From an uncultured Collinsella sp. (GTDB lineage Bacteria > Actinomycetota > Coriobacteriia > Coriobacteriales > Coriobacteriaceae), in contig UQWK01000001.1 in assembly GCA_900544725.1 (NCBI GenBank), forward strand, positions 15,066 through 79,065: a stretch of DNA of 64,000 bases. Reading direction: 5' to 3'. Below, in pieces: positions 16,972 to 34,172 of this stretch. Under the pieces are notes generated by a model that saw only the letters and a program-made list of their open reading frames with translations, was not told where the DNA came from and ran no database searches. Position numbers and translations under genes: made by a program. The first letter of the stretch is position 1, and every line of letters starts with the position of its first letter.

Positions 16972-17031
16972 GTTCGAGCTCCCTGTTACGTAATCCGCGA
17001 GAACATCTCTCGCACTCTTTGGAGGTTTAAG

Positions 17032-17340
17032 TTGGCTACCCAGAAGATCCGCATTCGCCTCAAGGGCTATGATCACGAGGTCGTCGATCAGTCCGCGAAG
17101 CTCATCGTCGAGACCGCTCAGAAGACCGGCGCTCGCGTTTCCGGTCCTGTCCCCCTGCCCACCGAGCGCAACCTGTACACGGTTATCCGCTCGCCGCACG
17201 TGAACAAGGACTCCCGTGAGCAGTTCGAGATGCGCACCCACAAGCGCCTTATCGACATCCTCGACCCCACCTCGGGCACCGTTGATTCGCTCATGCGTCT
17301 CGACCTCCCCGCTGGCGTCGACATCGACATCAAGCTCTAA
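17032..17340 (+). CDS. rpsJ: 30S ribosomal protein S10
   Basis: TTG start, RBS ggagg; [15 protein letters not shown]... conserved S10. Confidence 0.93.
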
Positions 17341-17361
17341 GCGATATCGCTCATAGCTTAA

Positions 17362-17402
17362 AGGGCCCCGCTGCCATTATGGTAGCGGGGCCCTTTTGTT
17401 TT
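17362..17402 (+). terminator. Rho-independent terminator immediately after rpsJ
   Basis: gggccccgctgcc-atta-tggtagcggggccc followed by ttttgtttt. Confidence 0.85.
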
Positions 17403-17456
17403 GAATGGTGGCCTTGGGGGCCCGGATAATGCGGCCGAATGGGTGGCTATGGCGTC

Positions 17457-18233
17457 TTATTTACCCATGGGGCGCAGGGATGCCTCCTCAAAATGGAAGG
17501 ATCGCAAGTCGTCTTCTGTCTCGATGCACGCGCGACCAAAGTCATCGACCGTTTGAAAGATGCCAAGCGCCAGCTCGTCCCCAGCGGGGGAACGGGCGAT
17601 AACGTGATCCCCAATCCAATTGAGATGACCGATATATTCACCGTGAACGGGCGCGAGCGGTCCGGCGTCTTCCTCCATGGCGTTGAGACGCTCTGCCCAC
17701 GTGTCTACAGCGTTCACGACCGCGTGATAGACCTGCTTGAGTAGCACATCGACGGCGGGAACATTCTCGTTGAGGTCCGAGAGACCGATTGCCGGCAGGC
17801 CGCCATCGGGAACCTCCGAAGGCACATAGTTCACATTGACGCCAATGCCGCAGACGGCGAAAGGTTTGCCTTCGTTATCGCGTGCGGCCTCGACCAGAAT
17901 GCCGCCGAGCTTGCGTCCTCGCGCGACCAGATCGTTGGGCCATTTGAGGCCAATCTCGTTTGCAAGACCCTTCTTTTCGAGCGCCTCGAGCACCGCTAGG
18001 CCGCTGACGGCGGCAAGACCAGAGTACTTGGCGGGATCAACACGTGGACGCAGGACAATCGAAAGCAATAGGTTGCCGGCGGTTGAATCCCACTTGTGGC
18101 CGCGCCGGCCGCGTCCTGCTGTCTGAGCCCGGGCGGCAAGTCCTGTGCCGTGCGGCGCTCCTTGTTTTCCTGCTTCGAGCAGGTCATCGTTGGTCGATCC
18201 GGTTACGTCGACTATCGTTAATTTGGCATCCAT
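17457..18233 (-). CDS. birA: Biotin--[acetyl-CoA-carboxylase] ligase
   Basis: MDAKLTIVDVTGSTNDDL...GRGRRGHKW biotin protein ligase motif; RBS aaggagg; long ORF trimmed to internal ATG. Confidence 0.85.
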   Translation of the reverse strand: MDAKLTIVDVTGSTNDDLLEAGKQGAPHGTGLAARAQTAGRGRRGHKWDSTAGNLLLSIVLRPRVDPAKYSGLAAVSGLAVLEALEKKGLANEIGLKWPNDLVARGRKLGGILVEAARDNEGKPFAVCGIGVNVNYVPSEVPDGGLPAIGLSDLNENVPAVDVLLKQVYHAVVNAVDTWAERLNAMEEDAGPLAPVHGEYIGHLNWIGDHVIARSPAGDELALGIFQTVDDFGRACIETEDDLRSFHFEEASLRPMGK

Positions 18234-18330
18234 AGCGGCTGCTACCTCCTTAATGAATAAGTGAATAACGCAATGGTGTCGTGAGGCAGACACAATGTGA
18301 AGCCTTTGTCGCATTTGGACAATTTAATGT

Positions 18331-18396
18331 TAACACGTCAACAATGACTGAAATGCGCTATCCTCTCTTGGTCGATGTAAACACGTCAACAACTCA
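18331..18396. promoter_or_regulatory. Two direct repeats taacacgtcaacaa / taaacacgtcaacaa, 47 bp apart, in the birA-fabH divergent region (candidate operator)
   Basis: Two 14/15 matching copies just upstream of the fabH RBS. Confidence 0.4.
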
Positions 18397-18409
18397 AAGG
18401 AGGTTAGTG

Positions 18410-19369
18410 ATGGGTTTCACGATACTGGGAACAGGCTCGGCACTTCCCGAGCGCAGTGTTTCCAATGACGAGCTGTCCGAGTTCCTCGATACCTCGGATG
18501 AGTGGATTTTTACCCGCACGGGGATCAAGAGCCGCCATGTGTGCACCACCGAGTCACTCGACGACCTTGCCATGGCAGCGAGCGAGCAGGCTCTCCAGGC
18601 GTCTGGAATCGACGCGAGCCAGCTGGATCTTATCGTCTGCTCGACGACGACGGGCGACCATCTCGTTCCCGCGGAAGCGTGCGCCGTTGCCGAACGCCTG
18701 GGCGCCACATGTCCTGCCTTCGACGTTTCGGCGGCCTGTGCTGGCTTCGTATTTGCGCTCGATGTCGCCGAGGGCTATATCGCCCGCGGTCGCGCCAAGC
18801 GCGTCCTTGTCGTCGCCGCCGAGCAGATGACGCGTGCGCTCGACTGGACCGACCGCGCGACGTGCGTGCTCTTTGGTGATGGCGCGGGCGCTGCGGTCAT
18901 AGAGGCCGGGGGAGAGAACCCCCTTGCCGTCGAGCTTTCGACCGCACCCGATGTCGAGACGCTGCGTGTTCCGGGACTGGCTGGGACCTCACCGTTCAAG
19001 GATTCCGCGGACCGTGAGAGTGTGCTTTCCATGAACGGTCGTCGCGTGTTCAAGTTTGGCGTCAATGCAATCTGCGACACGGTCAACAAGCTCGCGAGTG
19101 ACACGAGTATCGCGGTTGAGGATATCGACCATTTTGTATTCCATCAGGCCAACGAACGAATCTTGAGCCAGGCGGTCAAGCGCTTGGGTGTGTCGGACGA
19201 CCGCGTGGTCCGTACGCTGCGCGAGACCGGCAATATCTCGAGCGCTTGCATTCCGCTTGCCCTCGACCGGTTGGCAAACTCCGGCGCTCTTTATCCGGGC
19301 GACACGATCGCCTTAGTCGGATTTGGCGCCGGCTTGGATATAGGTGGCTACCTGCTTCGCTGGAAGTAG
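18410..19369 (+). CDS. fabH: 3-oxoacyl-[ACP] synthase III
   Basis: 320 aa; catalytic Cys context AACAGF, His/Asn motifs; RBS aaaggagg. Confidence 0.9.
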   Translation: MGFTILGTGSALPERSVSNDELSEFLDTSDEWIFTRTGIKSRHVCTTESLDDLAMAASEQALQASGIDASQLDLIVCSTTTGDHLVPAEACAVAERLGATCPAFDVSAACAGFVFALDVAEGYIARGRAKRVLVVAAEQMTRALDWTDRATCVLFGDGAGAAVIEAGGENPLAVELSTAPDVETLRVPGLAGTSPFKDSADRESVLSMNGRRVFKFGVNAICDTVNKLASDTSIAVEDIDHFVFHQANERILSQAVKRLGVSDDRVVRTLRETGNISSACIPLALDRLANSGALYPGDTIALVGFGAGLDIGGYLLRWK

Positions 19370-19421
19370 TTGCACATAGGAAATAAAAACGCCCCCAGGG
19401 CACAAACAAAGGAGAAACACC

Positions 19422-19658
19422 ATGGCAGATCAGAAGACCTTCGAGCGCGTTTGCGACGTTATCCGCGAGACCGCCGGCCTTGACGATGTCGAGATGAAGC
19501 CCGAGTCCACGCTCGAGGAGATTGGCCTCGACAGCTTGGGCACCGTCGAGATCCTCGTCGCCGTCGAGGACGAGTTTGGCATTCAGCTCGACACCGAGGA
19601 GAACCCCAAGACGGTCGGCGAGTTTGTCGATACGGTCGAGGCGGCATTGGAGAAGTAG
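19422..19658 (+). CDS. acpP: Acyl carrier protein
   Basis: 78 aa with phosphopantetheine attachment motif LGLDSLG. Confidence 0.92.
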   Translation: MADQKTFERVCDVIRETAGLDDVEMKPESTLEEIGLDSLGTVEILVAVEDEFGIQLDTEENPKTVGEFVDTVEAALEK

Positions 19659-19660
19659 TA

Positions 19661-20605
19661 ATGCTCAAGACTCCTCTCTGCGACCTGCTTGGCATCGAAA
19701 AGCCCGTGTTCCAGGGCGGCATGGCCTGGATTGCCGATGCCTCGCTGGCATCGGCCGTGTCCGAGGCGGGTGGCCTAGGCATCATCGCGGCTATGAATGC
19801 CGATGCCAACTGGCTGCGCGACCAGATCCACGAGCTGCGCGCCAAGACGGACAAGCCCTTTGGCGTCAACGTCATGCTCATGAGCCCGTTTGCCGACGAG
19901 GTGGCACAGGTCGTGATCGATGAGCAGGTGCCCGTTGTGGTGACCGGTGCCGGCAACCCCACCAAGTACATGAAGGCTTGGAACGATGCGGGCATCAAGG
20001 TTATCCCCGTCGTGGCTTCGGTGGCGCTGGCGCGTCTCGTGGCGCGTCGGGGAGCCACTGCCGTGGTTGCCGAGGGCACTGAATCGGGTGGCCATATTGG
20101 CGAGACCTCGACGATGGCGCTTGTTCCGCAGGTTGTCGATGCGGTGGATATCCCCGTTGTGGCGGCAGGCGGCATTGCCGATGGCCGTGGCGTGGCAGCC
20201 GCCTTTATGCTGGGCGCCGCCGGCGTCCAGGTGGGCACGCGCTTTTTGGTTGCAGACGAATGTACCGTATCCGAGCAGTACAAAGAGCTGGTGCTCAAGG
20301 CAAACGACACGTCGACGCGTGCGACCGGCCGCTCAACGGGACATCCGGTGCGTGCCCTTAAGAGCCCCTTCACCAACGCCTATGCCAAGAACGAGGCTGC
20401 AGGCGCAAGCCCCGAGGAGCTTGGCGCCATGGGTACGGGTGCGCTTCGTAAGGCCGCCAAGGATGGCAATTACGAAGAGGGCTCGTATTTGTGCGGCCAG
20501 ATTGCCGGCATGGTCAAAGAGCGCCAGAGCGCGCGCGAGATCGTCGACGACCTGGTCGAAGGTGCCGAGCGCGTCTTGAAGGGTGCGTCCGCATGGGTGG
20601 CGTAG
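19661..20605 (+). CDS. fabK: Enoyl-[ACP] reductase II (FMN-dependent, nitronate monooxygenase family)
   Basis: 314 aa NPD/FabK family; position fabH-acpP-fabK as in streptococcal FASII clusters. Confidence 0.8.
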   Translation: MLKTPLCDLLGIEKPVFQGGMAWIADASLASAVSEAGGLGIIAAMNADANWLRDQIHELRAKTDKPFGVNVMLMSPFADEVAQVVIDEQVPVVVTGAGNPTKYMKAWNDAGIKVIPVVASVALARLVARRGATAVVAEGTESGGHIGETSTMALVPQVVDAVDIPVVAAGGIADGRGVAAAFMLGAAGVQVGTRFLVADECTVSEQYKELVLKANDTSTRATGRSTGHPVRALKSPFTNAYAKNEAAGASPEELGAMGTGALRKAAKDGNYEEGSYLCGQIAGMVKERQSAREIVDDLVEGAERVLKGASAWVA

Positions 20606-21519
20606 CGTTTCTGTTTGCCGGCCAGGGTGCCCAGCATCCCGAGATGGGCGTCGACCTCATCGAAGCATCGCCGGCGGCCGCCGAGGTGTTCGCGATCGCC
20701 GACGAGGTGCGCCCGGGGACCAGTGAACAGTGCCGGAGCGCCTCTAAGGAGGAGCTGTCGCAGACCGAGAACACACAGCCTTGCGTGTTCGTGCACGACT
20801 TGGCCGTCGCCGCTGCCCTACGCGAGCGCGGCGTGGTGCCTGCCGCCTGTGCGGGCTTCTCGCTGGGCGAGGTCGCCGCACTCACCTTTGCGGGGGCATT
20901 CGATACGCGAGCGGGTTTTGAGCTCGTGTGCGAGCGCGCGGCGCTGATGTCCGCGGCTGCCGAGCGCCATCCGGGCGGTATGCGCGCCGTTATCAAGCTC
21001 GATGCGGCACAGGTTGAGAGCCTGGCCGCACAGGCCGGCGAGGACTGCTGGCCGGTCAACTTCAACAGCCCGCAACAGACGGTTGTAGCCGGAACGCCCG
21101 AGACACTCCAGGAGCTCGACGTCCTGGTAAAAGAGGCTGGCGGCCGTGCGATGAAGGTTGCGGTGTCGGGTGCGTTCCATAGCCCCTATATGGCAGAGGC
21201 GACTGAGGGGCTGGCGACGTATATCCAAGCCGGCCACGCGCCGTCTCCGCTGCTCATTCCGGTTGTGGCAAACATGACGGCGGCGCCCTATCCGGCGGAC
21301 CCCCAAGCGGCATCGGAGGTCCTGGCCAACCAGGCGAGCCATGCCGTGCGCTGGGTTGACACGCTGCACACTCTGCAGGATCAGGGCATCGATACGTTTA
21401 TTGAGGTCGGCCCCGGTAAAACGCTGTCCGGCCTGGTCAAGCGTACGTTGAGCGATGTTCGCGTGTATTCGTGCGAAACGGCCGAGCAGGTCGCAGCTAT
21501 TGCCGACGAGCTCGCATAG
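20593..21519 (+). CDS. fabD: Malonyl CoA-ACP transacylase
   Basis: AFLFAGQGAQ...GFSLGE active-site serine motif; overlaps fabK 3-prime end. Confidence 0.9.
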   Translation: MGGVAFLFAGQGAQHPEMGVDLIEASPAAAEVFAIADEVRPGTSEQCRSASKEELSQTENTQPCVFVHDLAVAAALRERGVVPAACAGFSLGEVAALTFAGAFDTRAGFELVCERAALMSAAAERHPGGMRAVIKLDAAQVESLAAQAGEDCWPVNFNSPQQTVVAGTPETLQELDVLVKEAGGRAMKVAVSGAFHSPYMAEATEGLATYIQAGHAPSPLLIPVVANMTAAPYPADPQAASEVLANQASHAVRWVDTLHTLQDQGIDTFIEVGPGKTLSGLVKRTLSDVRVYSCETAEQVAAIADELA

Positions 21520-21549
21520 CCCACAGGGCTGTAACCCGAAAGGAACGAC

Positions 21550-22323
21550 ATGGGCAACATGAACAACGGCGCGCTCGAGCGCAACGACACACGTCGGGTG
21601 GCGCTCGTTACGGGCGGCTCGCGCGGCATCGGTCGCGCTTGTGCCGTGGGCCTGGCGGAGGATGGCTACGATGTCGCCGTCATCTATGCCGGCAGCGCCG
21701 ATGCAGCGCGCGAGACGTGCGAAGCCTGCGAGGCGGCTGGCGCCACGGCGCGCGCATATCAATGCGACGTGGCCGACCCCGCTGCCGTCAACGCATGCGT
21801 GGAAGCGGTCCTGAGCGACTTCGGCTCGATCTGGGCGCTCGTCAACAACGCCGGCATCACCTGCGATGGCCTGCTTATGCGCATGGGCGACGATGCGTTC
21901 GATCGCGTACTCAATGTCAATCTCAAGGGCACGTTCAACACGACACGCGCGCTCACCAAGACTTTTATGCGCCAGCGCGGCGGTTGCGTCATCAACATGA
22001 GCTCGGTCGTGGGCCTGATGGGCAATGCCGGACAGGTCAATTACGCCGCCTCCAAGGCGGGCGTTATCGGCCTGACCAAGGCGGTGGCGCGCGAACTTGC
22101 GCCTCGCGGCGTGAGGGCTAACGCGGTCGCCCCCGGGTTTGTCGAGACCGATATGACGGCAACGCTTTCGGAGAAGGTACGCACGGCGTGTGAGGAGCAG
22201 ATTCCCCTCAAGCGCATGGCGCGTCCCGAGGAAGTGGCCGGCGTGGTGCGCTTTTTGGCAAGCGATGCGGCGGCCTACATTACGGGCGAGGTCGTGCGCG
22301 TCGATGGCGGAATGGCGATGTAG
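21550..22323 (+). CDS. fabG: 3-oxoacyl-[ACP] reductase
   Basis: SDR: TGGSRGIGRA, NAG, YAASKAG motifs. Confidence 0.9.
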   Translation: MGNMNNGALERNDTRRVALVTGGSRGIGRACAVGLAEDGYDVAVIYAGSADAARETCEACEAAGATARAYQCDVADPAAVNACVEAVLSDFGSIWALVNNAGITCDGLLMRMGDDAFDRVLNVNLKGTFNTTRALTKTFMRQRGGCVINMSSVVGLMGNAGQVNYAASKAGVIGLTKAVARELAPRGVRANAVAPGFVETDMTATLSEKVRTACEEQIPLKRMARPEEVAGVVRFLASDAAAYITGEVVRVDGGMAM

Positions 22324-22364
22324 AAATTAGAGCCGGCACATACATCGGCTTGGATGAGGAGACC

Positions 22365-23615
22365 ATGATGGAACAGAGAGTTGCAATCACCGGCATCGGC
22401 GCTGTATCGCCGCTCGGCAACACCGCGCTTGCCACCTGGGCGGCCATGTGCGCCGGTACGTGTGGCGTCGGCCAGATCACGCACTTCGATACCGACGCGT
22501 TTGCCGTCAAGGTAGCGGCCGAGGTCAAGGGCTTTGACGGTACCGAGTACTTTGGCAAGCGTGACGCCAAGCATCTCGACCCCTGCGTTCAGTTTGCGAT
22601 GGCGGCTTCGGACGAGGCCATGCACGACGCAGGACTCGATGCCGAAGGCGCGATCGACCACGAGCGCCTTGGCGTGTACGTGGGATCGGGCGTGGGCGGC
22701 ATGACGACGCTCGTCGACAACGTCCACACGATTGCCGATCGCGGACCCCGCCGCGCATCGCCTTACATGATCGCGATGATGATCCCCAACATGGCTTCGG
22801 GCAATATTGCGATCCGCCACAAGGCAAAGGGTCCGACCCTGCCCGTCGTGACTGCTTGCGCGACCTCGGCCCATGCGGTGGGTGAGGCGTTCCGTGCTAT
22901 CAAGCACGGTTATGCCGACGCGATCCTTGCGGGCGGTGCCGAGGCGGCTATCATCCCCGACGCCGTTGCGGGCTTTACGTCCTGCCGTGCGCTTACCACC
23001 AACCCCGATCCGCAGTCGGCGTGTCGTCCGTTCGATGCGAACCGCGACGGCTTTGTGATGGGCGAAGGCGCCTGCGTGCTCGTGCTCGAGGGTATGGAGC
23101 ACGCACAGGCCCGCGACGCGCACATTTACGCCGAGGTCGTGGGCTACGGCAACACCGATGATGCCTATCACATCACGAGCCCCGATCCCGAGGCTGCCGG
23201 CATTGCCCGCGCGATATCGCTGGCGGTGGCCGAGGGCGACGTCAAGCCTTCCGAGGGTCTCTACATCAACGCTCACGGCACCTCGACCAAGCTCAACGAT
23301 TCGTCCGAGACGGCGGGCATTAAGCGAGCGCTTGGCGAGGATGCGGCGCGCGCCGCGCACGTCTCGTCGACTAAGTCGATGACCGGGCACATGATCGGTG
23401 CCACGGGCGCCATCGAGGTCATGGCCTGTGCCATGGCACTCGAACAGGGCGTGGTGCCGCCGACCATTAACTACAGCACGCCCGATCCCGCCTGCGATCT
23501 TGACTACACGCCCAATCGCGCGGTTCGCGCCGACCTTACCTGGGCGCTTTCGACCAACCTGGGCTTTGGCGGCCACAACGCCGCCATCGCGCTGCGCAAA
23601 TATACAAGGAGCTAG
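22365..23615 (+). CDS. fabF: 3-oxoacyl-[ACP] synthase II
   Basis: KAS II family; ORF opens at TTG 22350, ATG 22365 preferred (RBS gaggag). Confidence 0.9.
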   Translation: MMEQRVAITGIGAVSPLGNTALATWAAMCAGTCGVGQITHFDTDAFAVKVAAEVKGFDGTEYFGKRDAKHLDPCVQFAMAASDEAMHDAGLDAEGAIDHERLGVYVGSGVGGMTTLVDNVHTIADRGPRRASPYMIAMMIPNMASGNIAIRHKAKGPTLPVVTACATSAHAVGEAFRAIKHGYADAILAGGAEAAIIPDAVAGFTSCRALTTNPDPQSACRPFDANRDGFVMGEGACVLVLEGMEHAQARDAHIYAEVVGYGNTDDAYHITSPDPEAAGIARAISLAVAEGDVKPSEGLYINAHGTSTKLNDSSETAGIKRALGEDAARAAHVSSTKSMTGHMIGATGAIEVMACAMALEQGVVPPTINYSTPDPACDLDYTPNRAVRADLTWALSTNLGFGGHNAAIALRKYTRS

Positions 23616-23618
23616 AGC

Positions 23619-24092
23619 ATGGATTCCAAAAGACTTGCCGAGATAGCCGATGTTATGGAGGACCGCGGCCTCACGCGCGTGCGCGTGGAGGAGCCCGATG
23701 GCACCGCGGTCGAACTTGAGCGCGCGAGTGCCGCGCAGCCGGTTGCCGTGCCCATGCCCATGCCGAGCGCTATGGCTGCTCCGGTTGCGGCGCCCGCAGC
23801 TGCGCCTGCCGCGCCGGAACCTGCCGCGCAAGCGCCCACTGCCGCACCGGAGCCCAAGGGCGTCGAGGTCACGGCTCCCATGGTGGGCGTCTTCTATGCC
23901 GCCCCGGCGCCGGGCGACGAGCCGTTCGTGCGCGTGGGCTCCAAGGTCAAGGCCGGCGAGACCCTCTGCATCATCGAGGCCATGAAGGTTCTCAACGAGG
24001 TAACGGCAGAGGCGGATGGCGAGGTGCTCGAGATTTGCGTGGCCGACGGCGACCTCGTGGAGTTTGGCAGCTGCCTCATGAGAATCGGATAG
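23619..24092 (+). CDS. accB: Biotin carboxyl carrier protein of acetyl-CoA carboxylase
   Basis: Ala/Pro-rich linker and biotinylation motif EAMKV. Confidence 0.9.
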   Translation: MDSKRLAEIADVMEDRGLTRVRVEEPDGTAVELERASAAQPVAVPMPMPSAMAAPVAAPAAAPAAPEPAAQAPTAAPEPKGVEVTAPMVGVFYAAPAPGDEPFVRVGSKVKAGETLCIIEAMKVLNEVTAEADGEVLEICVADGDLVEFGSCLMRIG

Positions 24093-24101
24093 GTGATATC
24101 C

Positions 24102-24524
24102 ATGAACAAAGAAGAGCTTAAAGAACTGTTGCCGCATCGCGAGCCGATGCTTTTGCTCGACGAGGCCGAGCTGGTGGGCGATGAGGCCCACGGCAAGATC
24201 ACGATTGCGGGCGATGAGTACTTTTTGCAGGGGCACTTTCCGGGAAACCCGGTCGTGCCCGGCGTGATCCAGTGCGAGATGCTCGCCCAAAACTGCTGCG
24301 TGCTGCTGATGGGCGATGAGGAAGCGCGTGGTGCGACGCCGTTCTACACGAGCCTGGACAAGGTGCGTTTTAAGCGTCCGGTGCGCCCGGGCGACACGGT
24401 GGACCTGGTGTGCTCGATCACCCGTGCGCGCGGGCCGTTCCGCTTTGCGACGGGTACTGCGAGCGTCAACGGTGAGGTTTGCTGCCGCGCCGATATGTCC
24501 TTTGCGCTCGTGCACGAAAGTTAA
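24102..24524 (+). CDS. fabZ: 3-hydroxyacyl-[ACP] dehydratase
   Basis: Hotdog fold; LLPHREPMLLLD and GHFPGNPVVPGV motifs. Confidence 0.9.
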   Translation: MNKEELKELLPHREPMLLLDEAELVGDEAHGKITIAGDEYFLQGHFPGNPVVPGVIQCEMLAQNCCVLLMGDEEARGATPFYTSLDKVRFKRPVRPGDTVDLVCSITRARGPFRFATGTASVNGEVCCRADMSFALVHES

Positions 24525-24534
24525 GGAAGGCTTC

Positions 24535-25878
24535 ATGTTCGACAAAGTGCTCATCGCCAATCGCGGCGAGGTCGCGGTCCGTGTTATCCGCGCGTGCCGC
24601 GATATGGGCATCAAGACCGTTGCCGTCTATTCCACGGCCGATGCGGACGCACTGCACGTGCAGCTTGCCGACGAGGCATACTGCATCGGCGGCCCACGTC
24701 TTGCCGAGAGCTACCTCAACGACGATGCCGTGCTCACCTGCGCCGTAAAGTCGGGAGCTAAGGCAATCCATCCCGGCTATGGCTTCTTTTCCGAAAAGGC
24801 GAGCTTTGTGCGCGATTGCGACAAGTATGGCCTGACGTTTGTCGGCCCCTCGGCCGAGGTGATCGACAGCATGGGCGACAAGGATGCGGCGCGCCGAACG
24901 GCTGCCGCCGCGGGCGTGCCCATCGTGCCGGGCTGCGATTTGCTCAAGAGCCCCGAGGAGGCGACGGCCGAGGCCGAGCGTATTGGCTGCCCCGTGCTCA
25001 TCAAGGCGCGCGCGGGCGGCGGCGGCCGCGGCATCCGCAAGGTCGAGCGCGTGGAAGATGCGGCAAAGGCTTTTATTGAAGCACGCGCCGAGGGCGAGGC
25101 CGTTTTTGGCGACGGCGAGTGCTACATGGAAAAGTTCGTCGCGCCGGCGCATCACGTTGAGGTGCAGATTATGGCCGATAAGCAGGGCCATGTGTTTTCG
25201 CTCGGCGAACGCGAGTGCTCGGTGCAGCGCCGCAACCAAAAGCTGATCGAGGAGAGTCCCGCGCCGTGCCTCGACGGACACGACGACATTCGCGCGCGCA
25301 TGCACAAGGCGGCGCGTGACCTGGCTCGTGCCGTCGGCTACGAAGGAGCCGGTACCATCGAGTTCCTGTATTCGGACGACGGCAATTTCTACTTTATGGA
25401 AATGAACACGCGCTTGCAGGTGGAGCATCCGGTTACGGAGTTTGTGACCGATACCGACTTGGTCAAGTGGCAGCTGCGCGTGGCAGCCGGCCAGCCTCTG
25501 CCCTTTGAGCAGGAGGACATGCCGGTCCGCAACCACGCCATGGAGTGCCGCATCAATGCCGAAACGCCGGACTTTCTGCCGTCATGCGGAACGGTCACCA
25601 CGTTGCGCGTGCCGGGTGGTCCGCGCGTGCGCTGGGATTCGGCCATGTTCACCGGTGCGACAGTTCCGCCGTACTACGACTCCATGCTCGGCAAGCTCAT
25701 CGTGTGTGCGCCCACGCGTGACGGCGCCATTCGCAAGATGCGCTCGGCCCTGGGCGAGCTCGTGATTGAGGGCGTGAGCGAAAACAGCGAGCTTCAGCTC
25801 GACGTGCTGGCAAACGACGAGTTCTTGTCGGGCATGTATCACACCGATCTGATGGGGCATCTCTATGCTGATGAATAG
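24535..25878 (+). CDS. accC: Acetyl-CoA carboxylase biotin carboxylase subunit
   Basis: MFDKVLIANRGEVAVRVIRA... ATP-grasp; 447 aa. Confidence 0.93.
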   Translation: MFDKVLIANRGEVAVRVIRACRDMGIKTVAVYSTADADALHVQLADEAYCIGGPRLAESYLNDDAVLTCAVKSGAKAIHPGYGFFSEKASFVRDCDKYGLTFVGPSAEVIDSMGDKDAARRTAAAAGVPIVPGCDLLKSPEEATAEAERIGCPVLIKARAGGGGRGIRKVERVEDAAKAFIEARAEGEAVFGDGECYMEKFVAPAHHVEVQIMADKQGHVFSLGERECSVQRRNQKLIEESPAPCLDGHDDIRARMHKAARDLARAVGYEGAGTIEFLYSDDGNFYFMEMNTRLQVEHPVTEFVTDTDLVKWQLRVAAGQPLPFEQEDMPVRNHAMECRINAETPDFLPSCGTVTTLRVPGGPRVRWDSAMFTGATVPPYYDSMLGKLIVCAPTRDGAIRKMRSALGELVIEGVSENSELQLDVLANDEFLSGMYHTDLMGHLYADE

Positions 25879-27589
25879 AAAAGCGAAGACGGTCAATGTC
25901 CTTGAGGGGCCGATAACCGAGTCGTGCGCCGAGTTTCCCGCGCGCCACGTGTTTATCAAGTGCCCGGAGTGCCGCCGTGTGATCGATGAGGCACGCCTAC
26001 ACGACAACCTCGAGGTCTGCCCTCGTTGCGGCAAACACTTTCGCGTGAGCGGTCGCGCGCGCATGCGCATGACGGTCGACGAGGGCACGTTTGAGGAATG
26101 GGATGCCAATCTGGCGTCGGAGGATTTCCTCTCGTTTCCCGGCTATGCCGACAAGCTCAAGAGCGTGAGCGAGCGTTCGGGCGAGCGCGACGCCGTTGTG
26201 TGCGGCAGGGGCAAAATCTGCGGTTGCGATACCGCGTTCTTCTTTATGGACGCCAACTTTATGATGGGCTCGATGGGTTCCGTGGTGGGCGAGAAGATCT
26301 GTCGCACATTTGAGCGTGCGACCGAGCTGGGATTGCCAGTTGTCGGCTTTACCGTTTCGGGCGGTGCGCGCATGCAAGAGGGCGTGACATCGCTTATGCA
26401 GATGGCCAAGATTTCTGCGGCGGTTAGGCGCCACAGCGAGGCGGGTGGCCTGTATATCACGGTGCTCACCGACCCCACGACCGGAGGCGTAACCGCGAGC
26501 TTCGCCATGGAGGGCGACATTATCCTGGCCGAGCCCGATGCCCTGACGGCATTTGCCGGCCCGCGCGTGATCGAGCAGAACATGCACAAGCGCCTGCCCA
26601 AGGGATTCCAGCGCTCCGAGTTTTTGCTGGAGCACGGCTTTTGCGATGCCGTTGTTCCGCGCGGCGAGATTGCGCTCACGGTAGGCGAGCTGCTGGCGCT
26701 GCACGAAGGGCACGCGCCCGGCTTGGGGGCACCGCATGAGATCGTGCATACGGGTCGCCGCGGCAAAAAGCTGGGGCACTTGTTCAAGCGCGCGGCGGCG
26801 CCAAAAACCGCGCTCGAGATTGTCAAGCAGACCCGCTCGGCAGATCGCGCCACGGCGGGCGAGGTGATCTCGCTGGGCCTGGATGGATTTGTGGAGCTGC
26901 ACGGCGACCGTTACTTTGGCGACGACGCCGCTGTGGTGGCTGGCATTGGCTGGAAGGACGGGCGCCCCGTAACGGTCATCGCCATCGAGCGCGGCACCAC
27001 GACCAAAGAGCGTATGCGCCGCAACTTTGGCATGGCGCATCCCGAGGGCTACCGTAAAGCGCGTCGCCTGATGCGCCAAGCCGAAAAGTTTGGTCGGCCG
27101 GTTCTGTGCCTGGTCGATACTTCGGGCGCGTTTTGCGGCATCGGTGCCGAGGAGCGCGGCCAGGGCGAGGCGATTGCCCAGAATCTCATGGAGATGAGCG
27201 GCCTTAAGACGCCGATTGTCTCGGTGGTAACAGGCGAGGGCGGCTCTGGTGGCGCGCTGGCGCTGTCCGTGGCCGACCGCATCCTGATGCTCTCGAGCTC
27301 GGCCTATTCGGTCGTGAGCCCCGAGGCCTGTGCGTCGATTCTGTGGAAGGATACCGAGCGCGCGAATGAGGCCGCCGAGGCGCTTAAGCTCACGGCTCCC
27401 GATCTGTTGGCGCTCGGTATCATCGACGGCATTGTTGACGATAGGGGTCTGTCGCATGAGGAGATCGCCGGCGCCGTCATGTCCTCGGCATTTGATGCCT
27501 TCGATACGCTTGGGCGGCTCGACGACGCGACCCTCACAAACCTCCGCTACGAAAAGTACCGCGCAATCGGTCAGTATCGCACGATGTGA
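25865..27589 (+). CDS. accD: Acetyl-CoA carboxylase carboxyltransferase, fused beta (AccD) and alpha (AccA) subunits
   Basis: N-terminal AccD zinc ribbon CPECRRV...CPRCGKHF, followed by an AccA-like domain in a single 574-aa ORF. Confidence 0.85.
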   Translation: MLMNRKAKTVNVLEGPITESCAEFPARHVFIKCPECRRVIDEARLHDNLEVCPRCGKHFRVSGRARMRMTVDEGTFEEWDANLASEDFLSFPGYADKLKSVSERSGERDAVVCGRGKICGCDTAFFFMDANFMMGSMGSVVGEKICRTFERATELGLPVVGFTVSGGARMQEGVTSLMQMAKISAAVRRHSEAGGLYITVLTDPTTGGVTASFAMEGDIILAEPDALTAFAGPRVIEQNMHKRLPKGFQRSEFLLEHGFCDAVVPRGEIALTVGELLALHEGHAPGLGAPHEIVHTGRRGKKLGHLFKRAAAPKTALEIVKQTRSADRATAGEVISLGLDGFVELHGDRYFGDDAAVVAGIGWKDGRPVTVIAIERGTTTKERMRRNFGMAHPEGYRKARRLMRQAEKFGRPVLCLVDTSGAFCGIGAEERGQGEAIAQNLMEMSGLKTPIVSVVTGEGGSGGALALSVADRILMLSSSAYSVVSPEACASILWKDTERANEAAEALKLTAPDLLALGIIDGIVDDRGLSHEEIAGAVMSSAFDAFDTLGRLDDATLTNLRYEKYRAIGQYRTM

Positions 27590-27605
27590 CAAAGGGACAG
27601 TCCGC

Positions 27606-28844
27606 ATGTCACATTGGGAAAGGGTTCCTGTGTCACAAGTTTCTAACACCTCGTTTACAACGACGGTCTCATCAAACGCCATGGCTGTGGTGGATTATCT
27701 GTCCAAAAGCATGATGTCGGCGCTGCCGTTTATTGTCTGCGCGGCGTTGTTCCGCACCGTCGCCGTCATTATGGGCGAAGGCATGCTGGGCCTGTGGTCT
27801 GCCGATTCCGATATCTATCGCCTGTTCTACAGTTGGCTCTATAACGCCGGCTACTACTTCTTGCCCGTTTATCTTGGTTGGGCGGCCGCTCGCCAGCTCG
27901 GTTGCTCGGAGCAGCTGGGCATGATGCTGGGCGGCGTATTGATTGCGCCCGATCTGCTTAAGCTCGTCGATGCCGCATCGACGACGGGGGCATCGATGAC
28001 TTCCGTGTATGGCCTGCTTCCCGCGCCGGTCAACGATTACACGACGACTGTTATTCCGGTTCTCATCTCGGTACCCGTGCTTTGGCAAGTGGAGTGTTTC
28101 TTTCAGCGCGTTATCCCTAAGGCCGTGGCGTTTTCGTTTGTTCCGTTTGCGACCATGCTTGTCATGGTTCCGGTTTCGCTGTGTATTACGGCGCCGGCGG
28201 GCAGCTATTTGGGCATGCTGTTGGGCCAGCTTATGTTTATGCTTGGCAATTCCGGTGGCATCGTATCGTTGCTCACACTCATGGGGCTTGCCGCGGGCTG
28301 GGAGTTCCTTAAGATCGCGGGCGTCAGCAACGTTGTCCTATCGCTCGCCTATGCGCAGTTTATGAGTGTGGGAACGGATTCGTGCATCCTGATCGCCGCG
28401 ACGATGGCAACGTTTGCCGTTTGGGGCATGCCCTTTGGCGCGTCGCTCCGCGTTGCGGATAAGGACGAGAAGACGCTCATGCTGGGCTATTCGATCTCGG
28501 GTGTTCTTGGCGGCGTAAGCGAGCCTGCGCTGTACGGTTGCGGCTTTAAATATGGCAGGTGCCTGACGTGCATGGCCATTGGCGGCGCCGTCGGAGGCCT
28601 TGTTGCGGCCGTGGGCCACGTTACGGCCTATACCATCGGCATGACGAATGTCCTCATGGTCATTGGCTTTGCCACGGGCGGCATCCCGAACCTGCTGTGG
28701 TGCTGCGCTGCCGGCGGCACGGCATTTGCGGTGTCTGCGGCGCTGAGCTACTGCTTTGGCGTGGTGCCGGCGAAGGGACAGGCGACGGGGGACGGAGGCG
28801 ATTCGCCCGAAACAGTGGCGAGCGCTGCTGAAGTAAGCGCATAA
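27606..28844 (+). CDS. PTS EIIC-domain-like membrane permease (no EIIB/EIIA domains)
   Basis: Polytopic membrane protein with GVSEPALYG (GITEP-like) motif; start choice 27606 vs 27681 uncertain. Confidence 0.5.
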   Translation: MSHWERVPVSQVSNTSFTTTVSSNAMAVVDYLSKSMMSALPFIVCAALFRTVAVIMGEGMLGLWSADSDIYRLFYSWLYNAGYYFLPVYLGWAAARQLGCSEQLGMMLGGVLIAPDLLKLVDAASTTGASMTSVYGLLPAPVNDYTTTVIPVLISVPVLWQVECFFQRVIPKAVAFSFVPFATMLVMVPVSLCITAPAGSYLGMLLGQLMFMLGNSGGIVSLLTLMGLAAGWEFLKIAGVSNVVLSLAYAQFMSVGTDSCILIAATMATFAVWGMPFGASLRVADKDEKTLMLGYSISGVLGGVSEPALYGCGFKYGRCLTCMAIGGAVGGLVAAVGHVTAYTIGMTNVLMVIGFATGGIPNLLWCCAAGGTAFAVSAALSYCFGVVPAKGQATGDGGDSPETVASAAEVSA

Positions 28845-28993
28845 ACCTGTGCGACAAAAGGACGATCCCTTTGTCGTGTTCCAAGGCCGTGGCTCGTGTG
28901 GGCTGCGGCCTTTTGTATCTTGAGGACAAAGTGGCTACACTACAATCCGTTTGAGCAATAGATATATAGGTAGTACCGTGGGGGCGGATGTAG

Positions 28994-30148
28994 ATGGTCG
29001 AGTGGATTGTTGGGCGCGCACAGGGCGATCGTGCGCGTGTGGGCACGTTAGCGGGCATGGTGTGTATTGTCGCCAATGTTGCGCTTTGTGCTGCGAAGGG
29101 TGCCATTGGTGTGGTTTCGGGATCGGTTTCGATTGTTGCGGATGCCATGAACAACCTGTCCGATGCCAGCTCGAATATCGTGAGCGTGCTGGGCTTTAAG
29201 CTGGCGAGCAAGCCGGCCGACCCCGAGCATCCTTACGGCCACGGTCGCTACGAGTATCTCTCGGGTCTGGTCGTGGCGGCACTCGTGCTGCTGATTGGCG
29301 TTGAGCTGGTGAAGTCCTCGGTCGAGCGCGTCATCCACCCCGAACCTGTCGAGTTCTCGCTTGCCCTGGTGGCAGTTCTAGTGCTTTCGATGGTCGTAAA
29401 GCTCTGGATGGCGGCCCTCAACCAAAAGCTCGGCGACCGTATCGAGTCCGAGACACTGCATGCGACGGCTCAGGATTCCAAGAACGATGTCCTTGCCACG
29501 GGTGCCGTGCTGGCGTGCGCAGTTGTTTCGCAGGTGACGGGCATCAATCTTGACGCTTGGGTCGGCCTTGCCGTTGGTGCCTATATTGGCTGGAGCGGTT
29601 TTGAACTCATCCAGGATACGGTGAGCCCGCTTTTGGGCCAGACGCCCGATCCTAAGCTGGTCAAGCACATTCGAGACAAGATCATGAGCTATCCCGGCGT
29701 TTTGGGCGTTCACGATTTGATGGTTCACGACTACGGCCCGGGCAGGAAGTTCGCAAGCGCTCACGCCGAGATGGCGGCCGAAGCCAGCCCGATGGAAAGT
29801 CACGACACGCTCGACAATATTGAGCAGGCGTTTAGGAACGAAGACGGCATGATCGTCACGCTCCATTACGATCCCATCGTGACCGACGATCCCAAGGTGG
29901 CGAGCATGCGTTTACGCATTAACGCCATGGCCCAACAGATTGATAGCCGCCTCTCGATTCATGACCTGCGCTGCGTGCCGGGTCCTACGCACACCAACGT
30001 GATCTTTGACTGCGTACGTCCCTCGGATCTGCAGATGAGCGCCGAAGACGTAAAACACGCGCTGGCACAACGGGTCGAATCGGAATATCCCAAGTCGATT
30101 GCCAAGATTACGATCGACGAGGACTACGTAGGGCATACCCACGAGTAG
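28994..30148 (+). CDS. Cation diffusion facilitator family transporter
   Basis: CDF signature ...SVSIVADAMNNLSDA..., HPYGHGRYE motif, C-terminal cytoplasmic domain. Confidence 0.85.
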   Translation: MVEWIVGRAQGDRARVGTLAGMVCIVANVALCAAKGAIGVVSGSVSIVADAMNNLSDASSNIVSVLGFKLASKPADPEHPYGHGRYEYLSGLVVAALVLLIGVELVKSSVERVIHPEPVEFSLALVAVLVLSMVVKLWMAALNQKLGDRIESETLHATAQDSKNDVLATGAVLACAVVSQVTGINLDAWVGLAVGAYIGWSGFELIQDTVSPLLGQTPDPKLVKHIRDKIMSYPGVLGVHDLMVHDYGPGRKFASAHAEMAAEASPMESHDTLDNIEQAFRNEDGMIVTLHYDPIVTDDPKVASMRLRINAMAQQIDSRLSIHDLRCVPGPTHTNVIFDCVRPSDLQMSAEDVKHALAQRVESEYPKSIAKITIDEDYVGHTHE

Positions 30149-30187
30149 GGCTGCGCCGGCAAAGCAAGTTATACAGAAGGGGAGAGC

Positions 30188-30814
30188 ATGAAGCGTCTAT
30201 ATCTACTCCGCCACGGCCAGACAGAATTCAACGTTAAAAAGCTCGTCCAGGGTCGCTGCGATTCACCGCTCACCGATTTGGGCCGTCAGCAAGCCGGGAT
30301 GGCAGCCGCATGGCTCAAAGCCCACAATGTCGTTCCTGACAAGGTGGTCTCTTCGCCTTTGGGTCGAGCCATGGACACAGCACAGCTCGTCGCAACCGAA
30401 CTCCTTGGCCCGGACGCAGCAGTCGAGTCCTGCGAAGGCATCATCGAGCGCTGCTACGGCACCTTCGAAGAAGGCCCCCACGACGCGCTGCCCACCGACG
30501 TCTGGGAACCCGGCGAGGATCTAGTCCCCTTTGGAGGAGAGGGAAGCCAAGCCCTGCAAAAACGCATGGTAGCCACCCTCACCAATCTCATAAGCGCCGA
30601 GAATGTCGAAACCCTCCTAGCAGTAAGCCACGGCAGCGCCAGCCGCCAATTCATCAAAGCCGCAGCCCCAGAGGGCTTCGAGCTCCCAACAAAACTCCCC
30701 AACTGCGCCATCATGATCTTCGATTTCGAAGAGGCAAAGCCACAAGCAGAAGGCGAGCCAATGCAATGCAAGTTCACCCTCCAGCAAATAGTGGACCCCC
30801 AACAAAGTCATTAG
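30188..30814 (+). CDS. Histidine phosphatase family protein (phosphoglycerate mutase-like)
   Basis: LLRHGQTEFN catalytic motif; 208 aa. Confidence 0.8.
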   Translation: MKRLYLLRHGQTEFNVKKLVQGRCDSPLTDLGRQQAGMAAAWLKAHNVVPDKVVSSPLGRAMDTAQLVATELLGPDAAVESCEGIIERCYGTFEEGPHDALPTDVWEPGEDLVPFGGEGSQALQKRMVATLTNLISAENVETLLAVSHGSASRQFIKAAAPEGFELPTKLPNCAIMIFDFEEAKPQAEGEPMQCKFTLQQIVDPQQSH

Positions 30815-30850
30815 CCTGAGCGAGCAAGGTTTAGCAGACATCAACGTGGC

Positions 30851-31013
30851 GTTCCCAGTGTGCGGCGGAGGGGGCGGGCCTGAGACATATTAAGGTTGCT
30901 GCTCTACAGTCCTGCTCACGACGGAGAGCACATTAAGTGCTCTCCTGTTCGTGCGGAACTCGCGACAACCTTAATATGTCTCAGGCCCGCCCCCTCCGCC
31001 GCACACTGGGAAC
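30851..31013. repeat. Palindromic repeat element copy R4 (inverted orientation; 48-bp perfect outer arms gttcccagtgtgcggcggagggggcgggcctgagacatattaaggttg)
   Basis: Core ggagagcacattaagtgctctcc plus ctgctctacagtcctg equals reverse complement of the R2 core. Confidence 0.85.
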
Positions 31014-31063
31014 GTGCCACGCACTTTACCTGCGTAAACAATGTGAGTGAAATATGAATCTCG

Positions 31064-31089
31064 ATGGATACGCCCGCAGCCGTGTATAC
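31064..31089 (+). promoter_or_regulatory. Motif atggatacgcccgcagccgtgtatac upstream of rplC (candidate promoter/operator)
   Basis: Matches 32929-32954 at 22 of 26 positions and shares GGAYACGCCCG with 13781-13802. Confidence 0.4.
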
Positions 31090-31282
31090 TAATCAGCTGT
31101 GTGTAACCAGGGGAGTATTCTGGCTGGACAAAATGCCTGCTTAATAGGGTTGTCAGGTAGTCCAGGCGAAATACAAGGCTGGGGAGCACGTCGTGTAAGT
31201 AGTGGTCCTCTAGGGGCGTACGCTCGGTGGTGTACGCATTGTCCCAAGACCACGCGAGAGTTGGGATCATATCTTGATCAGC

Positions 31283-31894
31283 ATGATTCTCGGCCGCAAG
31301 ATTGGCATGACCCAGGTTTGGGACGAGGACGACAACGTCGTTCCCGTCACGGTCATCCAGGCTGGCCCCTGCGCTGTCTCGCAGGTTAAAACTCAGGCAA
31401 CCGACGGCTATGACGCCGTCCAGATCGGTTTCGGCGACATCAAGGCCAAGAACGTGAACAAGCCCATGGCTGGTCACTTCGCCAAGGCTGGCGTCGAGCC
31501 TGTCCGCTTCCTTCGTGAGGTCCGCGTCGAGAACGGCGAGGAGCACAAGGTCGGCGAGGTCGTCACCGTCGCTGATTTCGCTGATGTCGAGAAGGTCGAC
31601 GTCATCGGTACCTCCAAGGGTAAGGGCTTCCAGGGTCGCATCAAGCGCTGGGGTCAGCGCCGCGGTCCTATGACGCATGGTTCTCACTTCCAGCGTCACC
31701 CCGGTTCTATCGGTCAGTGCGCCTATCCTGCGCGCGTCCTCAAGGGCGTCAAGATGGCCGGTCACATGGGTAACGAGCGCGTTACCGTCAAGAACCTTTC
31801 CGTTGTCCGCATCGATGCCGAGCAGAACCTCATCTTGGTCAAGGGCGCTGTCCCGGGTGCCAAGAATGGTCTCGTCGCCATCCGTATGGCCTAA
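31283..31894 (+). CDS. rplC: 50S ribosomal protein L3
   Basis: [11 protein letters not shown]... conserved; ORF opens at TTG 31274, ATG 31283 preferred. Confidence 0.93.
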
Positions 31895-31940
31895 GGGCCC
31901 AGCCCATTTAGCCCAGCGTCATACCAAGGAGAACACTTAA

Positions 31941-32567
31941 ATGGCAAAGTTTGAAGTAAAGAACAGCGAGGGCAAGAAGGTCGCCGAGGCCGAGCTCGCC
32001 GCTGAGGTGTACGGCATCGAGCCGAACATCCACGTTATGCACCACATCGTCAAGTGCCAGATGGCCTCTTGGCGTCAGGGCACCCAGTCCGCTAAGGGCC
32101 GCTCTGAGGTTTCCGGTGGCGGCAAGAAGCCTTGGCGTCAGAAGGGCACCGGCCGTGCCCGCCAGGGTTCCATCCGTGCTGCCCAGTGGCGTCACGGTGG
32201 CGTTGTCTTCGCCCCCAAGCCCCGTTCTTACGCTAAGCGTATGAACAACAAGGAGGTCAAGCTGGCTATGCGCTCCGCGCTGTCTGCCAAGCTGGCCGAC
32301 GGCGAGCTCGTGCTCGTCGACGACTACGGCTTCGAGAAGCCTTCCACCAAGGCTGCCGTCGCCATGCTCAAGGCTCTCGGCCTTGAGGGCAAGCGTCTGA
32401 CCATCATCGTTCGCGATGAGGACGTCAACGCCTACCTGTCGTTCCGCAACATTCCCAAGACGTTCATCATCACTGCCGACGAGGCCAACACCTACGATCT
32501 CGTCAACAACAACGCTGTGCTGATGCCCGCCGACATCGCCGCTCACTTCGGGGAGGTGCTTGCATAA
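31941..32567 (+). CDS. rplD: 50S ribosomal protein L4
   Basis: 208 aa; conserved L4; operon position. Confidence 0.93.
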   Translation: MAKFEVKNSEGKKVAEAELAAEVYGIEPNIHVMHHIVKCQMASWRQGTQSAKGRSEVSGGGKKPWRQKGTGRARQGSIRAAQWRHGGVVFAPKPRSYAKRMNNKEVKLAMRSALSAKLADGELVLVDDYGFEKPSTKAAVAMLKALGLEGKRLTIIVRDEDVNAYLSFRNIPKTFIITADEANTYDLVNNNAVLMPADIAAHFGEVLA

Positions 32568-32855: not shown

Positions 32856-32881
32856 GACTCGCTGCTGTTGAGTGAGCTCAT

Positions 32882-32954
32882 GCCTCCCAAATAGGGGAGG
32901 CGAGAGCTCAAGGTTTTGGGCGTATAAAATGGACACGCCCGGAACCGTGTATAC
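32882..32954 (+). promoter_or_regulatory. Hairpin gcctccc-aaata-gggaggc, then motif atggacacgcccggaaccgtgtatac, in an unusual 179-bp rplW-rplB gap
   Basis: Second copy of the 26-nt motif found upstream of rplC. Confidence 0.4.
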
Positions 32955-33034
32955 GTCCGGTGTCATCGCACCCGAGGCAGAACCTCGAATCCCTGTCTGC
33001 GATGGCTAACGGATTCCTATTGAAAGGGATTGTA

Positions 33035-34158: not shown

Positions 34159-34172
34159 GGGGTTAACCGTAA

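Follow-up and report, generated by a model that had tools for sequence, protein, structure and literature searches.

A fatty-acid synthesis cluster between rpsJ and rplC of Collinsella: probable accumulation of native genes in an inter-operon spacer

The 64-kb stretch of DNA analysed here (the window) comes from a genome of the Collinsella aerofaciens group. In it the ribosomal protein genes rpsJ and rplC are separated by a 13.9-kb block that carries the biotin-protein ligase gene birA, a complete cluster for type II fatty-acid synthesis (FASII) and acetyl-CoA carboxylase (ACC), and genes for an enzyme IIC (EIIC) domain of the phosphotransferase system (PTS), a cation diffusion facilitator (cdf) and a histidine phosphatase (hisP). 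We think it probable that this block is native cargo which accumulated in the spacer between two operons, and that it is neither the interruption of an operon nor a recent foreign import. A preliminary description of the sequence had reported a block of about 13.9 kb between the two genes, and both the separation and the list of genes were borne out with Pfam and NCBIfam profiles, by which gene content and order were assigned throughout. Its statement that the block splits the S10 operon is misleading, as the boundary after rpsJ appears to predate the block and no transcription unit seems to be interrupted. RpsJ is 99-100% identical to RpsJ of 12 Collinsella species, and the stretch from rpsL to the end of the FASII/ACC cluster (accDA) is collinear between the window and 12 Collinsella species. 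Since the layout around rpsJ is repeated in the 11 Collinsella species genomes that extend beyond rpsJ and in many independent metagenome contigs, an assembly artefact is ruled out.

The transcription-unit boundary after rpsJ

Loci of relatives are referred to by numbers preceded by L; among them, L014 is an Atopobiaceae metagenome-assembled genome (MAG), L017 is RUG844 and L091 is Thermophilibacter immobilis. In all Coriobacteriales loci examined (window 16972-17031; L013, L014, L017, L089, L091) tuf is missing between fusA and rpsJ. The spacer between these two genes measures 38-97 nt in the loci examined (L013, L014, L017, L089, L091) and 60 nt in the window, where it contains no terminator and no promoter-like site. 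Behind rpsJ, a strong terminator was found in nearly all Coriobacteriales lineages checked; the combination of rpsJ close to fusA with a strong terminator behind it occurs in the window, L014, L089, L091, L093, L126, L130, L151 and L219, and the terminators of L126 and L089 are homologous to that of the window. The strong hairpin that had been noticed after rpsJ is real, with a 17-bp stem, 11 G-C pairs and a T-run at 17360-17402. The two genes are adjacent in Atopobiaceae and other Coriobacteriales (L014, L017, L091, L130, L100, L170), and as neighbours they are still 190-450 nt apart (L014, L017, L091 and a number of metagenome contigs); in other Actinomycetota, as in other phyla, the distance is about 30 nt, with tuf and/or a larger fusA-rpsJ gap in Actinomycetia and the other phyla. 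This spacer, when nothing else is in it, holds a terminator, a promoter-like block and a leader. Since these signals are present where nothing has been inserted, the block would sit in a pre-existing inter-operon spacer: judged by its sequence signals, the Coriobacteriales transcription-unit boundary lies after rpsJ, and the block lies between predicted transcription units, not inside one. The marks of an E. coli-type S10 operon are lacking here, as rpsJ is not the first gene, has no leader of its own and is 13.9 kb away from rplC; in Rfam there was no match to S10-leader, nor to any other known ribosomal leader in the vicinity of rpsJ or rplC.

The features of the region, in window coordinates, are as follows.

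13928-14305, + strand: rpsL, str-type unit (Pfam)
14379-14852, + strand: rpsG, str-type unit (Pfam)
14872-16971, + strand: fusA, str-type unit (Pfam)
17032-17340, + strand: rpsJ, last gene of the str-type unit (Pfam)
17360-17402, + strand: intrinsic terminator 3' of rpsJ, left edge of the block
17457-18236 or 18314, - strand: birA, biotin-protein ligase (PF03099 and PF02237; TIGR00121, 132.7 bits against a cut-off of 83.1)
18315-18397, no strand: putative birA-fabH divergent promoter region (sequence and motif search)
18398-27589, + strand: FASII/ACC operon fabH-acpP-fabK-fabD-fabG-fabF-accB-fabZ-accC-accDA (Pfam, NCBIfam)
about 18398-19369, + strand: fabH
19422-19658, + strand: acpP
19661-20605, + strand: fabK (TIGR03151, 459.6 bits against a cut-off of 453.1; PF03060)
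20593-21519, + strand: fabD
21550-22323, + strand: fabG
22368-23615, + strand: fabF
23619-24092, + strand: accB
24102-24524, + strand: fabZ
24535-25878, + strand: accC
25865-27589, + strand: fused accD-accA (accDA)
27630-28844, + strand: orphan PTS EIIC-domain membrane protein (TIGR01995, E 1.5e-54)
28883-28912, + strand: intrinsic terminator after the EIIC gene (13-bp stem, T-run), predicted to close the fab-EIIC unit
28994-30148, + strand: cdf, cation diffusion facilitator transporter (Pfam, NCBIfam)
30188-30814, + strand: hisP, histidine phosphatase family, His_Phos_1 (Pfam, NCBIfam)
30850-31014, no strand: palindromic element, 165 nt
31060-31273, + strand: rplC promoter-like block and leader, right edge of the block
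31274-31894, + strand: rplC (Pfam)
31274-37062, + strand: rplC-rplD-rplW-rplB-rpsS-rplV-rpsC-rplP-rpmC-rpsQ-rplN-rplX (Pfam for rplC and rplD; gene calls plus Pfam on identical contigs for the others)

The order of the FASII genes, which had been likened to that of streptococci, was confirmed by both profile collections, with accD and accA fused: the AccD and AccA models of NCBIfam match the two halves of one 574-aa protein. The product of birA, which is divergent from the fab operon, is a ligase only, with no repressor helix-turn-helix domain; its likely start gives 258-260 aa and a gene end at 18236, and homologues have 258-278 aa. As for the PTS EIIC of the preliminary description, the EIIC identity was right, but the protein is an orphan domain without IIB or IIA domains, since its alignment to TIGR01995, the model for beta-glucoside PTS proteins, is limited to the EIIC region (positions 96-452 of the 618 in the profile); it had no match in Pfam. 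The second strong terminator, at 28883-28912, points to several transcription units inside the block.

At the right edge, the promoter-like motif suspected before rplC holds up as a -10-like TATACT at 31085-31090, conserved in relatives within a block of consensus about GTGTATACTAGACAGGCTGTG. The start of rplC, first placed at an ATG at 31283, is more likely the TTG at 31274, judging from the alignment with relatives. Between them runs a leader of about 190 nt (window 31094-31273), whose conserved three-stem motif (31202-31253) lies directly before the ribosome-binding site and has the form GTGGTCCKCTRGGG-hairpin-GTCCCAWGACCAC. Promoter block and leader can be aligned in L014, L017, L089, L091 and L093, with or without inserted cargo, and the leader is conserved upstream of the rplC operon in Coriobacteriales (window, L014, L017, L089, L091, L093, L096-L175). 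A metagenome scan with the leader motif matched 120 stretches, of which 80 loci were returned, and the proteins of the window were mapped onto these loci. The apical hairpin P3 covaries: 6 of its 7 pairs show changes on both sides among 26 distinct sequences, 95.4% of cells are paired compared with 31-51% in slid controls, and the covariation score was reached by none of 500 shuffles. The invariance of stems P1 and P2 comes from the search pattern, in which they were fixed. The sequence GACCAC, which forms the outer stem's 3' half, is also complementary in many lineages to ATGGTC at the start codon. The leader has no family in Rfam 15, and the published ribosomal-leader candidates include an rplC-associated (L4) one only in Archaeoglobi (PMC7247131); ours is absent from them and is undescribed. 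Its predicted structure, conserved and covarying upstream of a ribosomal protein operon, is one mark of a ribosomal-protein leader, and an autoregulatory function is likely.

Distribution and origin of the fab cluster

The genomic context of the fab cluster was recovered for about 12 Coriobacteriales lineages, mostly MAGs or metagenome contigs without firm taxonomy. The 120 matches listed in a search for birA homologues were all from the C. aerofaciens group (83-94% identity), and FabF (predicted structure with a pLDDT of 82.7) was used for distant relatives. FabF matches had identities between 68% and 97%, and those carrying names, at 69-78%, were Tractidigestivibacter, Thermophilibacter, Enorma and Atopobiaceae. 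All lineages recovered (L089, L091-L095, L216-L219, L221) have fabH-acpP-fabK-fabD-fabG-fabF-accB-fabZ-accC followed by the fused accDA. In most of them birA adjoins the cluster, and a MarR/fabT-like gene stands first in L091, L094, L095, L217, L218 and L221. What varies is the location. Only a clade centred on Collinsella (window, L001-L012, L126, L093, L219, L089) has the cluster between rpsJ and rplC; it lies between rpoC and rpsL in a Thermophilibacter-like lineage (L091, L221), and without linkage to ribosomal genes in Enorma (L092), Tractidigestivibacter (L216), L094, L095, L217 and L218; degV is the last gene in all clusters located outside the rpsJ-rplC site. The suggestion of a lineage-specific rearrangement is therefore supported, the comparison of synteny having shown that the placement of fab is not identical across the class. 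In L221 (16048-21248) the fab cluster next to rpoC is followed by pilus genes (FctA/SpaA, sortase), and the rpoC-rpsL gap may also collect cargo in the Thermophilibacter-like lineage.

In the window there is no MarR open reading frame (ORF) between birA and fabH and no room for one. This intergenic region contains two direct copies of AACACGTCAACAA, at 18332-18344 and 18380-18392; a motif search found two copies also in L002 and one in L093, directly upstream of fabH. They are a candidate operator for a regulator that would replace the missing FabT.

To place the clusters, we built a neighbour-joining tree from seven concatenated proteins (FabH/K/D/G/F-AccC-AccDA; 2,500 columns), with bootstrap and midpoint rooting and with no outgroup. 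All clusters located between rpsJ and rplC form one clade with 100% bootstrap, and their nearest relatives are Atopobiaceae-like clusters. Identity of the concatenated Fab proteins to other Coriobacteriales is 65-96%, and their divergence parallels that of RpsJ, FusA, RplC and RplD, in the order L093, then L089, then L091.

The composition of the block, compared with that of other genes as the preliminary description had proposed, matches the host. The root-mean-square difference in codon usage is 0.100 between the block and the ordinary genes of the window, against 0.128 between translation genes and the same ordinary genes. GC content at third codon positions (GC3) of the fab genes is 0.72-0.85 in the window, 0.88-0.93 in L091, 0.90-0.96 in L089 and 0.83-0.91 in L092, and thus tracks the host genome in four lineages. 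This agrees with long residence in the host. The change in sign of the GC skew across the block was considered as a sign of foreign origin or inversion and rejected; it arises because codons ending in C are less strongly preferred than in translation genes, as is also the case for the fab genes of L091 and L089. Clearly atypical composition was found nearby only in an ECF sigma/anti-sigma pair that lies between rpoC and rpsL. This insert, an ECF sigma factor gene with a DUF4179 (anti-sigma-like) gene at 11576-13247, has a GC3 of 0.56-0.60, against about 0.8 elsewhere, and is bracketed by palindromic elements (11409-11549 and 13582-13722). The core of these elements is present upstream of rpsL in two copies only in L010, and in one copy in L001, L002, L003 and L005, which suggests that the insert is variable.

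From the look of the cluster, acquisition of a Firmicutes-type fab module had been put forward as one of two options; taken as a recent event, it would mean that Collinsella gained the module horizontally and that it went into the S10 operon. Its enzymes do have their best solved matches in that direction: FabK is 59% identical to 7L00 and 53% to 2Z6I, and FabF matches 4LS5 best, with 441 bits versus 238 for Mycobacterium tuberculosis KasA. We take 7L00 to be the Clostridioides difficile FabK and 4LS5 to be the Bacillus subtilis FabF. The cluster is of a streptococcal/clostridial type with FabK, in the order known from Streptococcus pneumoniae, fabKDGF-accB-fabZ-accCDA (PMC4996995). This FabK/FabT streptococcal type, however, appears from the sequences to characterise the order as a whole: each of the Coriobacteriales lineages sampled has the cluster, including the distinctive accDA fusion, and the nearest relatives are Coriobacteriales (65-96%), above the values for 7L00 and 2Z6I. 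Further, codon usage and GC3 are host-like in the four lineages, no integrase or transposase domain was found among the genes of the block (Pfam, NCBIfam), and the 64-kb window has no tRNA genes. As a recent event the acquisition is thus unsupported, and we regard it as extremely improbable.

It is a different matter whether the ancestor of Coriobacteriales or Coriobacteriia long ago received a Firmicutes-type fabT-fab-degV cluster by transfer, which then descended vertically and was relocated; this is compatible with native cargo in an inter-operon spacer. The architecture of L091, L094, L095, L217, L218 and L221 is Lactobacillales-like (MarR/fabT first, FabK, gene order, degV), and FabF is far closer to Bacillales FabF than to mycobacterial KasA/KasB. 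Yet FabF structures of the E. coli type reach about 370 bits as well, and the likeness to Firmicutes may come from common descent of a canonical FASII that is widespread; we hold such a transfer to be possible, with the balance somewhat against it.

Returning to the accumulation of native cargo, which we favour, we propose the following course. In Coriobacteriales tuf would have left the str operon, and rpsJ would have become its last gene, with an intrinsic terminator behind it, while rplC to rplX would be transcribed from their own conserved promoter through the structured leader of about 190 nt. The stretch of about 100 nt between the rpsJ terminator and the rplC promoter would then have been a 'safe' insertion site. 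Into this site the order's own birA and fabH-to-accDA cluster may have moved in the common ancestor of the Collinsella-centred clade, fabT and degV being lost during the relocation or soon after. Later modules would have been added, lost and swapped by lineage, leaving in the window the EIIC gene, cdf, hisP and the invertible palindrome of the C. aerofaciens clade. As arranged now, the rpsL-rpsG-fusA-rpsJ transcript would end at about 17400, birA and fab would diverge from 18315-18397, the fab-EIIC transcript would end at 28912 and be followed by cdf-hisP from a cdf promoter, and the rplC operon would start near 31090, probably under control through its own leader. Since each module has its own signals (divergent promoters, terminator, cdf promoter, palindrome), independent transcription of ribosomal protein and lipid genes is to be expected. 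We infer the transcription boundaries, the single relocation event and the mechanism of relocation, for which duplication-deletion, excision-reinsertion, a swap with the str module, or cassette exchange by recombination in the conserved flanking ribosomal genes are candidates.

Several points weigh against this account. Termination after rpsJ, the rplC promoter and the lack of read-through are sequence predictions; the sample of fab contexts is small (about 12 lineages), and the distance tree is midpoint-rooted, without an outgroup. Enorma belongs to the same family as Collinsella, yet its cluster is less similar (71%) than those of Atopobiaceae-like lineages (about 73%), which is not what a simple vertical history predicts. 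The Collinsella-like L013, L151, L123 and L131, which are nested when judged by ribosomal-protein identity, have no fab genes at the site, so a single ancestral insertion requires later losses or moves. Finally, transfer of cassettes between relatives through the conserved flanks would give the same tree.

The swap with the str module can be stated more precisely. An ancestor with the order rpoC, birA-fabT-fab-degV, rpsL-rpsG-fusA-rpsJ, rplC would have given rise to the present arrangement when the fab and str modules exchanged places. L091 and L221 do carry fab between rpoC and rpsL, and in the Fab tree the Thermophilibacter/Tractidigestivibacter/L094 group is sister to the rpsJ-rplC clade; two independent landings in gaps of one supercluster of about 40 kb would be an unlikely coincidence. 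Nevertheless, L216 and L094 of the same sister group have the cluster elsewhere, no fab or degV remnant was found in the rpoC-rpsL gap of the window, where the ECF sigma insert lies, rpsL is not beside rpoC in L089, and the polarity needs an outgroup. We consider the swap unlikely. Less likely still is that the placement of fab in gaps of the rpoBC-str-S10 region in two clades (rpoC-rpsL and rpsJ-rplC) was selected and that the spacer serves as a cassette-exchange site. If this were true, selected placement would couple lipid synthesis to ribosome synthesis by chromosomal position, gene dosage or local transcription, and the near-identical flanking ribosomal genes would be homology arms for swaps of cargo between species. 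Cassette exchange through conserved flanks resembles capsule or O-antigen loci.

The variable spacer and its palindromic element

The content of the rpsJ-rplC spacer changes between very close relatives. Contigs whose RplC is 100% identical to that of the window mostly have accDA-EIIC-cdf-hisP; L153 is without the EIIC gene, L126 has birA-fab only, and L105 has unrelated genes, including hpt and ftsH, upstream. L151 (SKER01000224.1, 1-2700), with both RpsJ and RplC 100% identical to those of the window, reads rpsJ-terminator-cdf-hisP-rplC. At this site birA, the fab genes and the EIIC gene are all lacking, and the terminator behind rpsJ in L151 is homologous to the post-EIIC terminator of the window (28883-28912). 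Where RplC identity is 89-96%, the spacer contains hisP, cdf, cdf-hisP, a GFO/IDH/MocA oxidoreductase gene (gfo), the array of L219 or unrelated genes, and in more distant relatives it is mostly empty or has one small ORF. The states observed are: empty (L130, L100, L170); hisP alone (L123, L117, L157); cdf alone (L136, L154); cdf-hisP (L151); gfo (L131, L161); gfo-hisP (L013); fab-hisP (L093); birA-fab (L089, L126); a 1,397-aa surface protein with birA-fab, hisP, a full EIIBC and two gfo genes (L219); and unrelated genes for 7-11 kb, with the two ribosomal units fully disconnected (L105, L119, L132, L148, L173). The EIIC gene is absent from L153, L126, L089 and L093. FASII at this site is therefore polymorphic among very close relatives, and, since the content of the spacer differs so widely, the block is composite, made up of at least four modules with separate histories: birA plus fab, EIIC, cdf and hisP. 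The hisP gene (30188-30814) has an AT3 skew of +0.43 (A over T at third positions), all other genes of the window having T over A.

The palindromic element that had been pointed out before rplC is real, and occupies 30850-31014. Its 165 nt consist of 49-nt perfectly complementary arms around a 67-nt core, and it belongs to a family of about 130-165 nt sharing this conserved core, with further copies in the window at 419-548, 11409-11549, 13582-13722 and about 61226-61293. The arms differ between copies and are 97-100% self-complementary within a copy; Rfam gave only spurious matches to miRNA hairpins. In other samples, the rplC-proximal element was found as an exact forward copy at 2 loci and as an exact reverse complement, in place, at 10 loci. 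Since both orientations occur in otherwise identical sequence, the core flips. It is present in 34 of the 80 leader-bearing metagenome loci and in none of L013, L014, L089, L091 and L093; the family occurs in the C. aerofaciens clade alone, and the element is a point where many assemblies break off. The palindrome was considered as the cause of the original relocation and rejected, as its core is found only in the C. aerofaciens clade.

The variability of the cargo among close relatives, the breaks of many assemblies at the palindrome and its invertibility might suggest that the whole block is a mobile genomic island with the palindromic element as its integration or excision site, the more so as in L174 an inverted rpsL is linked by a hybrid element to the leader of rplC. 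Against this, we found no integrase, transposase, tRNA or flanking direct repeats, and the composition is native; the modules vary independently and not as one unit; and the fab insertion is older than the palindrome, L093 and L089 sharing fab without having the element. A mobile island is accordingly very unlikely, and a genomic island or prophage in the usual sense, with no tRNA, no recombinase and native composition, was rejected.

In L174 itself (735-1290), a hybrid palindromic element connects inverted rpsL and rpsG with the rplC leader; its left side is like the 13582-13722 copy and its right side like the 30850-31014 copy. In the window the cores of these two copies are inverted relative to each other and 91% complementary over 85 nt. 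The junction is either a real inversion from rpsL to hisP by recombination between inverted cores or an assembly chimera.

Relation to known arrangements

In Gammaproteobacteria and Bacilli, multigene insertions have been described between the operons of the rpoBC-str-S10-spc cluster, for example tusDCB between rpoBC and str, bfd-bfr and ilvEBNC-leuABCD between str and S10, and murB-birA-coaA between rrnB and tufB; they consist of native, non-mobile genes with no long-distance horizontal gene transfer, and further disconnection follows them (PMC8046335, PMC6735719). The window is alike in having native genes at an operon junction, no mobility genes, and relatives that are uninterrupted or further disconnected. 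It differs in that the str-S10 boundary is shifted by one gene, with rpsJ in the upstream unit, in that the cargo is a whole FASII plus ACC pathway of 10 kb, and in that close relatives differ from each other at this site far more than in those cases; Coriobacteriales were also outside those studies. We therefore see here a new example, in Coriobacteriales, of a known event, the insertion of genes between operons of the ribosomal supercluster. It extends to a gut actinobacterial order the observation that operon boundaries are where the supercluster breaks and that a first insertion paves the way for others.

The position of the boundary has parallels of its own. In cyanobacteria and archaea rpsJ stands at the end of a str-type unit, apart from rplC, with tuf between fus and rpsJ; the Coriobacteriales unit likewise ends with rpsJ, but without tuf. 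Since rpsJ is apart from rplC in those groups too, the rpsJ-rplC junction would be a recurrent evolutionary breakpoint. Linkage of ribosomal and lipid genes is also familiar from E. coli, where rpmF-plsX-fabH-fabD-fabG-acpP-fabF combines a ribosomal protein gene with lipid genes that are partly co-transcribed; this linkage is shared, whereas in the window terminators and a divergent gene would insulate fab from the ribosomal units. The streptococcal cluster is known with a fabM-like gene; none turned up in the window, where no search was aimed at fabM. Compared with the streptococcal/enterococcal fab operon, the window has the same enzymes in the same order, with FabK as enoyl reductase (PMC4996995), and its relatives have MarR/fabT first. 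Differences are that the window lacks fabT and has a divergent birA in its place, that accD and accA are fused, and that FabK shares no more than 53-59% identity with the Firmicutes enzymes of solved structure.

A 'Firmicutes-like' gene order is thus no proof of recent transfer. The polymorphism of FASII at this locus could matter for the dependence of gut strains on fatty acids and for narrow-spectrum drugs targeted at FabK. The structured rplC leader and the palindrome with its two orientations may be of more interest than the block.

Two further observations concern the rest of the window. The ribosomal cluster is broken again after rplX (37062-37530 and downstream): in L014 rplX is followed by rplE, rpsN, rpsH, rplF, rplR, rpsE, rpmD and rplO, none of which is present in the window or after rplX in L081 and L082. 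The genes found there vary among contigs of the C. aerofaciens group, being GFO/IDH-DeoR in one and PNP_UDP plus a PRD/EIIA regulator in another. Finally, an S-adenosylmethionine (SAM) riboswitch lies at 57527-57617 on the - strand (45.1 bits against an Rfam gathering score of 44.4), and three tandem 33-nt repeats beginning with CGGAAAAGTGTCGAAATC adjoin it at 57737-57835.

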